Origin: Escherichia coli
Lineage (GTDB): Bacteria; Pseudomonadota; Gammaproteobacteria; Enterobacterales; Enterobacteriaceae
Strand: one strand, 5' to 3'
Assembly: GCF_030384885.1 (NCBI RefSeq)
Contig: NZ_CP128613.1
DNA length: 64,000 bases
This document shows positions 53,140 to 54,285 of this stretch, piece by piece. The notes under the pieces were generated by a model. The model was not told where the DNA came from. It saw only the letters and a program-made list of their open reading frames with translations, and ran no database searches. Position 1 is the first letter of the stretch, and every line of letters starts with the position of its first letter. The position numbers and the translations under genes are program-made.

Positions 53140-53313
53140 TTAGTGGTTATTCGCTGCCAGATCGGCTTCGCTTAGCTGGGTGGCAGCGAGCACCAGGTCA
53201 CGATCAATGCCCTGTTCCAGCATGCGCAAGGCAATTTTAATGGCTTGTTCATGCATGCCCTCCTGCCAGCCAATTTGATGCCCTTCCTGCCGTAGCCGTT
53301 CAGCAATAGTCAT
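53140..53313 (-). CDS. ypaA: YpaA-like 57-aa ORF, a free-standing copy of the RpnB C-terminal segment
   Basis: Minus-strand [60 protein letters not shown]; its DNA is a near-copy of the 3' end of rpnB; below the 60-aa cutoff of the ORF track. Confidence 0.6.
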   Translation of the reverse strand: MTIAERLRQEGHQIGWQEGMHEQAIKIALRMLEQGIDRDLVLAATQLSEADLAANNH

Positions 53314-53325
53314 CAATCTCTCCTT

Positions 53326-54285
53326 TTAATAACAGTTCGGAATATCAGCATCAGTGAGTTGGGTTGTCGCCAGCACAATCTCACGTTCAAAGCCCTGTTC
53401 CAGCATGCGCAAGGCAATTTTAATGGCTTGTTCATGCATACCTTCTACTTTGCCTTTCTGCAAACCCTCCAATTTCCCCTCCTGCCAACCTTCAATTTTA
53501 CCTTCCTGCCAGCCAATTTGGTGTCCTTCCTGCCGTAGCCGTTCAGCAATAGTCATCAATCTCTCCTTTTGTAGTGGTGAACGTTCGGCAATCTCCTCAA
53601 TAAAACGGGTGAAACGGGAGGTATCGCCGCATTGCAGCAGATAATTAAACAGCGTTTGTAGCTGGCTGTCATTAGTGAAGCCTCTAACCAAAAGCGTGGT
53701 GATCCTGTCGACCATACCGATTAAATCGCGGTCGCGAATATGCTTTTGAATCAGTTCAAGCAGAGCTATACGCCGATGTTGCATGATCTCATCGTCAGGC
53801 ACGATGGTGATATCCACCAACGGAAAAGCTTCGGTGTACAACTGCCGGGCAAGTTGCGGATCGTCAAACTCATCCAGCCAGTTAAGTGAGTATGGGTAGG
53901 GCGAGGTTTCGCCGTGATAAAACAGCAACGGCACCACCAGCGGGACTCTGTCATAGCCTTTGTCCAGGTGACGCTGCATGGCGGCAGTGGCATAGCGCAT
54001 TAGCCGAAAAGCCATATTCTTTTCTGCAGAGCTTTGATGTTCAATCACGCAGTAGATATAGCCGTTACCGTCGCTGGTTTCCACGGACCACAAAACATCC
54101 GAGTAGTAAGCGCGTAAACTTTTTTCAATAAAGCTGGTGGGTTCCAGGCGTAAGGTTTGCAGGTTGCAAAGTTTACGCAGTGGCTCCGGTAGATGTATTT
54201 CGAGAAAATCCCGCGCGGTTTCGGGCGAGAACATAAAGGTTTTAAACACCGCATCATGCGGGGAGGAGGTTGTTGATTCGGTCAT
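53326..54285 (-). CDS. rpnB: Rpn-family recombination-promoting nuclease (PD-(D/E)xK, YhgA-like) RpnB/YfaD
   Basis: 319-aa ORF; N-terminal nuclease-like region and repetitive C-terminus ([17 protein letters not shown]); internal in-frame ATG at 53556 begins the same segment that is duplicated as ypaA. Confidence 0.8.

Follow-up and report, generated by a model that had tools for sequence, protein, structure and literature searches.

Why does a nuclease-like gene of Escherichia coli carry, directly behind it, a separate gene that repeats its own C-terminal small domain, and is the second copy a spare of the first? The pair lies on the minus strand of the window, the 64,000-nucleotide stretch of DNA that was analysed. 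The best explanation, with a probability of roughly 85%, is that the pair is E. coli rpnE-ypaA, a locus that belongs to the toxin-antitoxin-like Rpn family of "gene-within-a-gene" systems, with ypaA as a separately encoded second RpnS module. The arrangement itself is already known and was published with expression data in 2019 and 2023 (Meydan et al., 2019, bioRxiv 10.1101/520783; Zhong et al., 2023, PNAS, PMC10400941). The new elements are the inferred ancestral character of the ypaA tail, the frequency of the two-gene arrangement (~58%), and the mismatch in repeat number between the two copies.

The upstream gene (53326..54285, minus strand) appears in the open reading frame list as a 319-aa protein, the Rpn-family PD-(D/E)XK nuclease-like RpnE-L. 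A sequence-only reading of this DNA had called it rpnB (yfcI). That name is wrong, and the gene is rpnE (yfaD, b2244) by RefSeq annotation, by its position in the order glpC-rpnE-ypaA-yfaU, and by a profile search in which RpnE scored 707.8 bits against NCBIfam NF007418 (cut-off 583). It also scored 173.8 bits against TIGR01784 (cut-off 52.1), and YpaA aligned with the NF007418 profile at positions 244-308. The locus is 100% identical to that of E. coli 2013C-4282, with the same gene order. Both the 100% identical record NZ_CP027579.1 and K-12 label the gene rpnE or "ISNCY family transposase", and in K-12 rpnE (b2244) and ypaA (b4543) are annotated at the same place. An N-terminal Transposase_31 / PD-(D/E)XK domain spanning residues 8-209 (53659..54264, minus strand; Pfam PF04754, E = 1.2e-87) places RpnE in the Rpn (YhgA-like) family. 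The RpnA profile aligns with RpnE from 1-256 onto 1-256 with no offset. All residues that were mutated in RpnA (D11, D63, E82, Q84, R94, and D165) are present in RpnE with unchanged numbering, including D11, D63, E82, and Q84, which are essential in RpnA.

rpnB is a paralogue within the Rpn family that shares the domain layout of rpnE and has an internal start. However, its orthologues are 60-62% identical to RpnE and lie ~60 kb away in related genomes, and the rpnB-type tail (MTIADRLREEG...RLSPDDLIAQSH) is unlike the rpnE tail. A tblastn search of all 64 kb with RpnE and YpaA as queries matched the rpnE locus alone and returned no second rpn gene, which excludes both a nearby rpnB and a decayed N-terminal domain within the window. 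A sequence search of the PDB with full-length RpnE returned nothing relevant. PADLOC matched no Rpn model and gave a weak "putative invertase" match on the rpnE tail, which was disregarded.

Within rpnE, an in-frame ATG (53554-53556, minus strand) opens a 76-aa internal reading frame, RpnE-S (53326..53556), preceded at a distance of 4 nt by the Shine-Dalgarno sequence AAGGAGAG (53561-53568, minus strand). The free-standing gene, ypaA (b4543; RpnE-Ss; 53140..53313, minus strand), encodes a 57-aa RpnS-type three-helix domain with a Y-type, putatively ancestral tail and no extra repeat. The rpnE stop is separated from the ypaA ATG by a spacer of 12 nt, AAGGAGAGATTG (53314..53325, minus strand), which is identical to the sequence preceding the internal rpnE start and forms the duplicated Shine-Dalgarno region that serves ypaA. 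The homology of the two modules starts 14 nt before each ATG, Shine-Dalgarno AAGGAGAG included; in ypaA this signal recurs together with the start and, from the 76-codon internal frame, the first 35 residues not counting repeats. The two modules share 67/71 nt from -14 to +57 and 50/51 nt in a 16-residue core; at the 3' end, where the last 21 residues are diverged, they share 31/45. The E-type 3' end of rpnE (21 residues and the stop; 53326..53391, minus strand), the putatively derived tail, is ~60% identical at the nucleotide level to any ypaA-type tail. Helix 1 of RpnE-S also contains five 4-aa repeats (53440..53499, minus strand; a Tandem Repeats Finder array at 53440-53511) that ypaA lacks here, producing a 60-nt alignment gap. 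A tblastn search of the 64-kb window with YpaA gave a sole match at 53338-53556 (E = 1e-23), and the similarity to the rpnE tail is far above chance.

The sequence-only reading thus described a real duplicate, with the internal ATG correctly placed at 53556 as the opening of a 76-aa frame and with a 57-aa YpaA whose first 19 residues are the same as those of the internal frame. Besides the gene name, it erred in the spacer, given as 13 bp. Its description of a near-identical tail agrees with the 67/71 and 50/51 matches but not with the 3' end or with the 60-nt block that is missing from ypaA. Compared with the RpnE-S/RpnE-Ss locus of K-12, the synteny, Shine-Dalgarno, start, 12-nt spacer, and E-type and Y-type tails are the same. 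The differences are allelic only: the counts of extra repeats (rpnE tail/ypaA) are 5/0 here against 0/1 in K-12, and there are a few substitutions (I/F, L/Q, Y/H).

Structural comparison identifies YpaA as an RpnS-type protein. The sole real match among the PDB sequence search results is 7TH0 (RpnA-S), at E = 1.4e-4 by sequence and 4.8e-12 by profile. The top ranks of that search, designed pentatricopeptide and helical-repeat proteins, are artefacts that summed sub-threshold repeat matches with 0 significant stretches. The AlphaFold model of YpaA (pLDDT 80) has helices at 3-33, 38-45, and 49-53, and Foldseek places 7TH0 on top (probability 1.00, 45% identity; TM-score 0.62 query-normalised and 0.76 target-normalised). 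The precomputed annotation of Pfam PF27070 (HTH_Rpn_C) covers both RpnE and YpaA; a version of Pfam-A without PF27070 gave no significant match to YpaA or the RpnE tail, DUF4351 (PF14261) included. A variable count of 4-aa repeats beginning 8-20 residues past the initiating Met is a hallmark of RpnS proteins. At this locus, the variable 4-aa repeats start after residue 19, rpnE has near its 3' end an in-frame internal start preceded by a dedicated ribosome-binding site, and the product, homologous to 7TH0 and HTH_Rpn_C, is a three-helix bundle whose first helix is long. As in a separately encoded RpnSs, ypaA has its own start, 12 nt past rpnE, and is most similar to rpnE's own tail. Like YpaA, RpnA-S is a homologous three-helix bundle with a long first helix. 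However, RpnA-S is encoded only within its parent gene and has been shown to bind RpnA-L and to act as an antitoxin, whereas a comparable role for YpaA would follow by homology.

The intragenic C-terminal RpnS protein acts as the antitoxin of the full-length Rpn nuclease, as shown with RpnA, RpnB, RpnC, and RpnP2 (PMC10400941). The sequence-only reading had cited reports of such small proteins that counter the full-length nuclease, in agreement with this work. Its view of ypaA as a "spare or diverged antitoxin-like copy" also matches the literature, in which ypaA was renamed RpnE-Ss, a second, separately encoded copy (PMC10400941). Mapping of the two starts, which it had proposed as a check, is already published: both were mapped by ribosome profiling (Ribo-RET/Onc112) in K-12, where RpnE-S protein was also detected (PMC10400941; 10.1101/520783), as was SPA-tagged YpaA (PMC10400941). 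In the published phylogeny, RpnE-Ss groups with RpnE-S, as each Ss does with the S of the gene upstream of it (PMC10400941). Another rpn paralogue with a downstream Ss has the same architecture, in which a full-length rpn precedes a second copy of its small C-terminal module (88% identical to the tail in locus L077), although its duplication is an independent event.

The locus resembles type II toxin-antitoxin systems, in which a small helical HTH-like protein in excess blocks a toxic enzyme of the same transcription unit. Unlike in those systems, the antitoxin module doubles as the C-terminal domain of the toxin, a second copy is free, and the toxicity of RpnE is putative. RpnE was inactive in three K-12 assays, of recombination, toxicity, and SOS induction (PMC5350276), and the toxin for YpaA to neutralise therefore remains putative. 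However, the constructs in these assays co-expressed RpnE-S (PMC10400941).

These observations suggest the following organisation. The rpnE gene encodes the full-length PD-(D/E)XK nuclease-like RpnE-L, its internal Shine-Dalgarno and ATG yield the 76-aa C-terminal RpnE-S, and ypaA encodes RpnE-Ss with its own copy of the same Shine-Dalgarno and start. By homology, the long first helix of YpaA may mediate pairing with the C-terminal domain of either RpnE-L or RpnE-S. ypaA is probably co-transcribed with rpnE or with a short internal transcript. The locus ends at a GC-rich hairpin after ypaA (53106..53132, minus strand; reported as a terminator-like site on the plus strand), between the convergent ypaA and yfaU. 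This hairpin is the probable terminator of the rpnE-ypaA transcript or transcripts. Its RNA on the transcript strand (minus) has a folding energy of -15.9 kcal/mol (z = -3.9), and all Escherichia loci examined have it after the Y-type tail. A sigma-70 consensus scan of 52900-54500 returned no sites, neither an internal nor a ypaA promoter, and did not locate the published internal transcription start.

Comparison with relatives bears on the origin of the second copy. Between glpC and yfaU, a single syntenic gene is present in Escherichia albertii, E. whittamii, two cryptic-clade Escherichia, and C. sedlakii. The tails of the Escherichia outgroups are of the Y type, 80-97% identical at the nucleotide level to the ypaA 3' end (94-97% in the cryptic-clade orthologues), with the same hairpin behind them. 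In nucleotides, the E-type tail is only ~60% identical to all of these outgroup tails and is absent from the single-gene outgroup Escherichia. Because other Escherichia have a single rpnE with a ypaA-type tail, we infer that ypaA retains the ancestral tail and that the tail now fused to rpnE is derived. Within E. coli, a second RpnS module may have arisen by duplication or insertion. ypaA, the copy downstream, would have kept the ancestral tail and 3' flank, and the nuclease-fused copy would have gained a 3' end that is strongly diverged. Over their 5' two-thirds the copies are nearly identical, presumably through gene conversion, while repeat numbers would drift independently in each copy. 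A plasmid source of the E-type tail did not emerge: E. coli matches fell only in Mb-sized records, evidently chromosomes, and the Rpn tails on genuine plasmids were all distant (53% identity at most). Microhomology at the duplication junction (CCACTA, found before the Shine-Dalgarno and at the Y-tail end) was considered and rejected; the junction it predicts is unlike the real one.

The junction of E-type tail, spacer, and ypaA occurs in 3133 of 5426 complete E. coli genomes (~58%). Single-gene E. coli (O157:H7, B, EC93, and ATCC 25922) have rpnE fused to a Y-type tail, and the tail is an E/Y hybrid in one genome; fusions of rpnE to the Y-type tail are also mentioned by Zhong et al. (PMC10400941). 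Length variation always comes in multiples of 12 nt, in frame, with 0-8 extra repeats in the rpnE tail and 0-6 in ypaA across E. coli. The sample of loci was partly chosen by YpaA allele, and it includes 12 loci picked at even steps down the similarity ranking regardless of ypaA. In 10 of its 11 haplotypes the copies differ in repeat number (rpnE tail/ypaA: 5/0 here, 0/1 in K-12, and 8/4, 5/1, 1/4, 5/2, 3/1, 6/4, 8/6, and 7/1 elsewhere), and E2348/69 (4/4) is the sole match. In RpnC, one extra repeat abolishes the matching of RpnC-S and RpnC-LS, and neutralisation is lost (PMC10400941). If this rule generalises to RpnE, the mismatch argues against a simple cognate-antitoxin role. By that published rule, the mismatch in 10/11 haplotypes makes it unlikely that ypaA is simply a spare. 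YpaA of this strain, with five helical repeats fewer than the RpnE C-terminal domain, is probably a weak or non-cognate partner and not a redundant spare.

A stronger claim would be that the modules are deliberately non-matching specificity cassettes, with ypaA as an orthogonal RpnS that leaves the resident RpnE-L unneutralised. Together with the roles proposed for such a cassette (donor for swapping the tail or repeats of the nuclease by recombination, antitoxin against or decoy for Y-type Rpn alleles, or target of phage factors), this is possible but rather unlikely. The repeat mismatches and the RpnC result are consistent with it. The Y-tailed single-gene strains and the E/Y hybrid are the expected products of recombination between cassettes, for which the near-identical 5' parts supply the homology needed. 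However, the sample holds eight rpnE-tail and five ypaA repeat states, and random pairing of these gives about one match in ten. The single match among 11 haplotypes thus equals the random expectation, and selection for mismatch is not shown. The single-gene Y-type state is moreover also the ancestral one, so that fusions are indistinguishable in these data from loci that were never duplicated. The RpnC rule is carried to RpnE by analogy, and the choice of part of the sample by YpaA allele also weighs against this proposal.

ypaA could instead be a non-functional pseudogene fragment of a partial duplication, translated through an inherited strong Shine-Dalgarno and in the course of being lost, which we consider improbable. 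Its K-12 pseudogene label and the PGAP description "incomplete; missing N-terminus" point this way, and most PGAP records treat it as a pseudogene or fragment. The two-gene junction is missing from ~42% of complete E. coli genomes, and ypaA is therefore dispensable. The inactivity of RpnE in the K-12 assays (PMC5350276) fits as well, and the locus tolerates damage, given an IS2 insertion in one locus (L018) and a nonsense allele in another (L131). However, the ypaA reading frame, ATG, and Shine-Dalgarno are intact in every sampled two-gene locus, and the length changes are all in-frame 12-nt units. The conservation of the Y-type tail against the cryptic-clade orthologues and the accumulation of YpaA protein in K-12 (PMC10400941) likewise argue against such a leftover, and newer PGAP records name the product "Rpn/YhgA-type helix-turn-helix domain-containing protein".

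That ypaA is instead what remains of a second full-length tandem rpn gene after loss of the nuclease domain, as the sequence-only reading had also offered, draws on the multi-copy, mobile nature of rpn genes (PMC10400941) and on 3' ends as diverged as those of distant alleles (31/45 nt), but it is very hard to credit when similarity begins exactly at the Shine-Dalgarno, the spacer leaves only 12 nt, tblastn finds no Transposase_31 trace elsewhere in the window, all outgroup Escherichia and C. sedlakii have a single gene between glpC and yfaU, ypaA adjoins the ancestral 3' flank, and RpnE-Ss groups with RpnE-S in the published phylogeny (PMC10400941).

As a discovery, the reading of ypaA as a second RpnS module adds little, since gene-within-a-gene antitoxins and the free-standing ypaA were published in 2019 and 2023. 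It carries a lesson for annotation: most E. coli records label ypaA a pseudogene or a "hypothetical protein, missing N-terminus", and rpnE an "ISNCY family transposase". The locus is also a natural test bed, with one copy of the small domain fused to the nuclease and the other free, and with repeat numbers that vary independently and are mostly unequal. It is suited to asking whether repeat matching sets toxin-antitoxin specificity, how 12-nt repeats expand and contract, and whether RpnE, reported as inactive, becomes toxic once both small proteins are gone. A more speculative and doubtful extension holds that ypaA, instead of being a redundant spare antitoxin, is the ancestral C-terminal module of RpnE, displaced and then retained as an orthogonal cassette with mismatched repeats, and that recombination between the near-identical 5' parts of the modules swaps the oligomerisation and antitoxin-recognition domain of the nuclease. 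If so, module swapping would yield the Y-tailed single-gene alleles and E/Y hybrids of E. coli, and the rpnE-ypaA locus would have a built-in route to change its specificity under phage pressure.

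On the minus strand, a long ORF of 319 aa (53326-54285) is followed by a short ORF of 57 aa (53140-53313), with a spacer of 12 nt between the first stop and the second ATG, one fewer than the 13 bp counted in the sequence-only reading. That reading correctly described the 76-codon frame opened by an in-frame ATG at 53556 within the long ORF, and the 19-residue start that this frame shares with the short product. It named the long gene rpnB. RpnB is defined as YfcI and RpnE as YfaD (Kingston et al. 2017, PMC5350276). The window matches E. coli 2013C-4282 (NZ_CP027579.1) at 100% identity, and the order glpA-glpB-glpC-rpnE-ypaA-yfaU is common to 2013C-4282 and K-12 MG1655; this makes the long gene rpnE (yfaD, b2244) and the short gene ypaA (b4543). 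Annotation agrees, as does NCBIfam NF007418 (rpnE equivalog; 707.8 bits, cut-off 583), a model that carries the NCBI name "ISNCY family transposase", also the record name of rpnE. Pfam PF04754 spans RpnE residues 8-209 (1.2e-87), and the positions mutated in RpnA (D11, D63, E82, Q84, R94, and D165) are all kept. The rpnB-type orthologues found in a genome scan (60-62% identity) share their contigs with rpnE, some 60 kb away from it, and their tail is unlike that of rpnE. The observation is thus real and well placed, with the gene misnamed.

Annotation of ypaA (53140-53313 in the window; 4076-4261 in comparison locus L001; 7817-8002 in L002, from K-12) varies. It is labelled a pseudogene in K-12, whereas PGAP records for this strain and many others give "hypothetical protein, incomplete, missing N-terminus", with the spacer merged into the feature, and newer records "Rpn/YhgA-type helix-turn-helix domain-containing protein". 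The window contains just one Rfam match, the nuoG RNA motif (RF01748, 50.3 bits; 13390-13432, plus strand), which sits at the nuoG ORF start in the nuo operon and is ordinary for E. coli.

When the two copies are aligned as nucleotides, similarity sets in 14 nt before either ATG. The Shine-Dalgarno AAGGAGAG, which lies 4 nt ahead of the ATG in both small ORFs, is therefore part of the duplicate. Identity is 67/71 nt from -14 to +57, 50/51 nt over a 16-residue core, and 31/45 over the last aligned nucleotides; a 60-nt block of five 4-aa repeats occurs only in the long ORF. The "near-identical" tail proposed earlier therefore holds for the core but not for the 3' end or the repeat block. The sole tblastn match of YpaA in the whole 64-kb window is the rpnE tail (E = 1e-23), which excludes chance or low complexity. 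TTG directly precedes each small-ORF ATG in this strain and TTA does in K-12, which marks ATG as the conserved start. A sigma-70 consensus scan of the locus found no site; an internal transcription start is known from Zhong et al. (PMC10400941). A conserved hairpin (53106-53132; -15.9 kcal/mol, z = -3.9) lies 3' of ypaA, in the gap that separates this gene from the convergent yfaU.

YpaA belongs with the RpnS class of C-terminal small proteins. Along its whole length it matches the crystal chain of RpnA-S, 7TH0_A (E = 1.4e-4), and a profile of 41 Enterobacterales RpnS tails hits that chain at 4.8e-12. Designed PPR proteins ranked higher among PDB sequence matches; having no individually significant stretch, they were rejected as repeat-summation artefacts. 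In the AlphaFold model of YpaA (mean pLDDT 80), one long helix (residues 3-33) is joined by two short ones, and the top Foldseek match of the model is 7TH0 (probability 1.00, TM 0.62/0.76). PF27070 HTH_Rpn_C is listed for both RpnE and YpaA in precomputed Pfam annotation.

The rpnE-ypaA arrangement is already known, with experimental support for translation. Retapamulin ribosome-profiling peaks mark in-frame internal starts in 5/5 rpn genes, and the RpnE internal product was likened to the independent gene ypaA (Meydan et al., bioRxiv 10.1101/520783). This 2019 preprint gives 98% identity between the K-12 products; the fetched K-12 sequences (L002 7633-8002) are one 4-aa repeat and about 10 substitutions apart, roughly 80% identity. 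RpnS proteins are separately translated, and ypaA is explicitly named a second copy of RpnE-S, "RpnE-Ss", with profiling tracks shown and SPA-tagged YpaA detected (Zhong et al. 2023, PMC10400941). The start-site use that the sequence-only reading proposed to map is thus published and positive, as is the antagonism that it mentioned: RpnS blocks growth inhibition by RpnL for RpnA, RpnB, and RpnP2, and in the case of RpnA and RpnB it also blocks the SOS induction that RpnL causes (PMC10400941). Purified RpnA-S, a dimeric three-helix bundle, complexes with RpnA-L and stops its DNA cleavage (PMC10400941). RpnE was inactive in recombination, toxicity, and SOS assays (Kingston et al. 2017, PMC5350276); RpnE-S was co-expressed from those constructs, a caveat that Zhong et al. 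raise in general terms (PMC10400941).

Strains differ in how many 4-aa repeats helix 1 contains, and this number determines specificity; one repeat added to RpnC-S or RpnC-LS abolishes neutralization unless both partners have it (PMC10400941). Counted as extra units in the rpnE tail/ypaA, the window haplotype is 5/0 (also in 10/10 other contigs with the same YpaA allele) and the K-12 type 0/1 (10/10); others are 8/4, 5/1, 1/4, 5/2, 3/1, 6/4, 8/6, and 7/1. E2348/69 (4/4) is the only matched haplotype, and the copies mismatch in 10/11 distinct combinations from a partly allele-driven sample. Selection for mismatch is not claimed, because pairing at random among this many states would yield much the same ratio and the choice of loci was partly allele-driven. 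If the RpnC result generalizes, YpaA would usually be non-cognate to RpnE-L of the same cell. The earlier description of a spare or diverged antitoxin-like copy stands as to a second RpnE-S copy, but on that condition "spare" would be too simple. That the two modules act as specificity cassettes is compatible with the data and a tentative option. An extreme expansion occurs in the RpnS tail of Paludibacterium purpuratum (L059), with at least seven perfect RQEG repeats.

Tail ancestry was examined in 17 E. coli loci taken in even steps down the similarity ranking, 34 loci reached via four common YpaA alleles, and 80 loci with one genome per species. In all two-gene E. coli loci sampled, rpnE ends in FEREIVLA(T/A) + 10 residues + (C/G)(H/Y), rarely with one substitution (E-type), and ypaA in (F/I)DRD(L/Q)VLAATQLSEADLAANNH (Y-type). 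The syntenic position holds just one gene in E. albertii, E. whittamii, two cryptic-clade Escherichia, and Citrobacter sedlakii. Among the outgroups that belong to Escherichia, this gene bears a Y-type tail followed by the same hairpin; ypaA therefore retains the ancestral RpnE tail and 3' flank. Outgroup Escherichia 3' ends are 80-97% identical to that of ypaA at the nucleotide level (cryptic clades 94-97%); against each of these, the E-type 3' end reaches only about 60%. Judged from these sequences, the nuclease-fused tail is the derived one. At the codon after LEQG, divergence between copies leaps from about 3% to about 31%, synonymous sites included, suggesting a mosaic origin or gene conversion limited to the 5' two-thirds. 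The base before the small-ORF ATGs (53314-53316, 53557-53559) co-varies between copies within a genome (G/G here, A/A in K-12, A/G in several other strains), which hints at gene conversion.

The species-representative E. coli SCPM-O-B-8794 has a single-gene rpnE with a hybrid tail (L023 3230-3460), its first half E-like and its second Y-like (EADLAANNH), either a recombinant of two cassettes or the lineage giving rise to the E-type tail. A free-standing duplicate of the gene's own tail lies downstream in 2/80 species-representative rpn loci: Rahnella bruchi (L057), about 240-455 nt past the stop (roughly 3676-3891), where its repeat number differs from the parent tail as in rpnE-ypaA, and the rpnC-like locus of SCPM-O-B-8794 (L077), about 101-271 nt past the stop (roughly 3528-3698).

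A junction query (E-tail, spacer, and ypaA start) was covered to at least 80% in 3133/5426 complete E. coli genomes (~58%). Those without it include O157:H7, B, EC93, and ATCC 25922, with one gene and a Y-type tail, a state that is either ancestral or a fusion; downstream RpnS copies can disappear through deletion or by becoming fused to the N-terminal domain of rpn (PMC10400941). This frequent absence and the annotation fit a pure pseudogene. However, the ypaA ORF, Shine-Dalgarno, and ATG are intact in all two-gene loci sampled, repeat variation is strictly in-frame, the sequence is kept relative to outgroups, and the protein is detected, making that reading unlikely. The remains of a second decayed rpn gene, also proposed earlier, are highly improbable, given a homology boundary at the Shine-Dalgarno, a 12-nt spacer, single-gene outgroups, and neither an N-terminal-domain trace nor a second rpn gene by tblastn in the window. 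Two loci carry damaged rpnE: a Q-to-stop change nine codons past the internal start (L131 ~1027-1029, GCA_012187305.1) truncates RpnE-L and RpnE-S upstream of an intact ypaA, and in UTME-10 (L018 2616-4854) IS2 splits rpnE after the nuclease domain, leaving a separate Y-type tail, with yfaU truncated too.

These findings describe no new kind of system. Their additions are incremental: the ancestral tail resides in ypaA, the two-gene form occurs in ~58% of genomes, and the two copies usually differ in repeat number. Two questions come into sharper focus: is YpaA a cognate partner of RpnE, and does RpnE act as a toxin in the first place?
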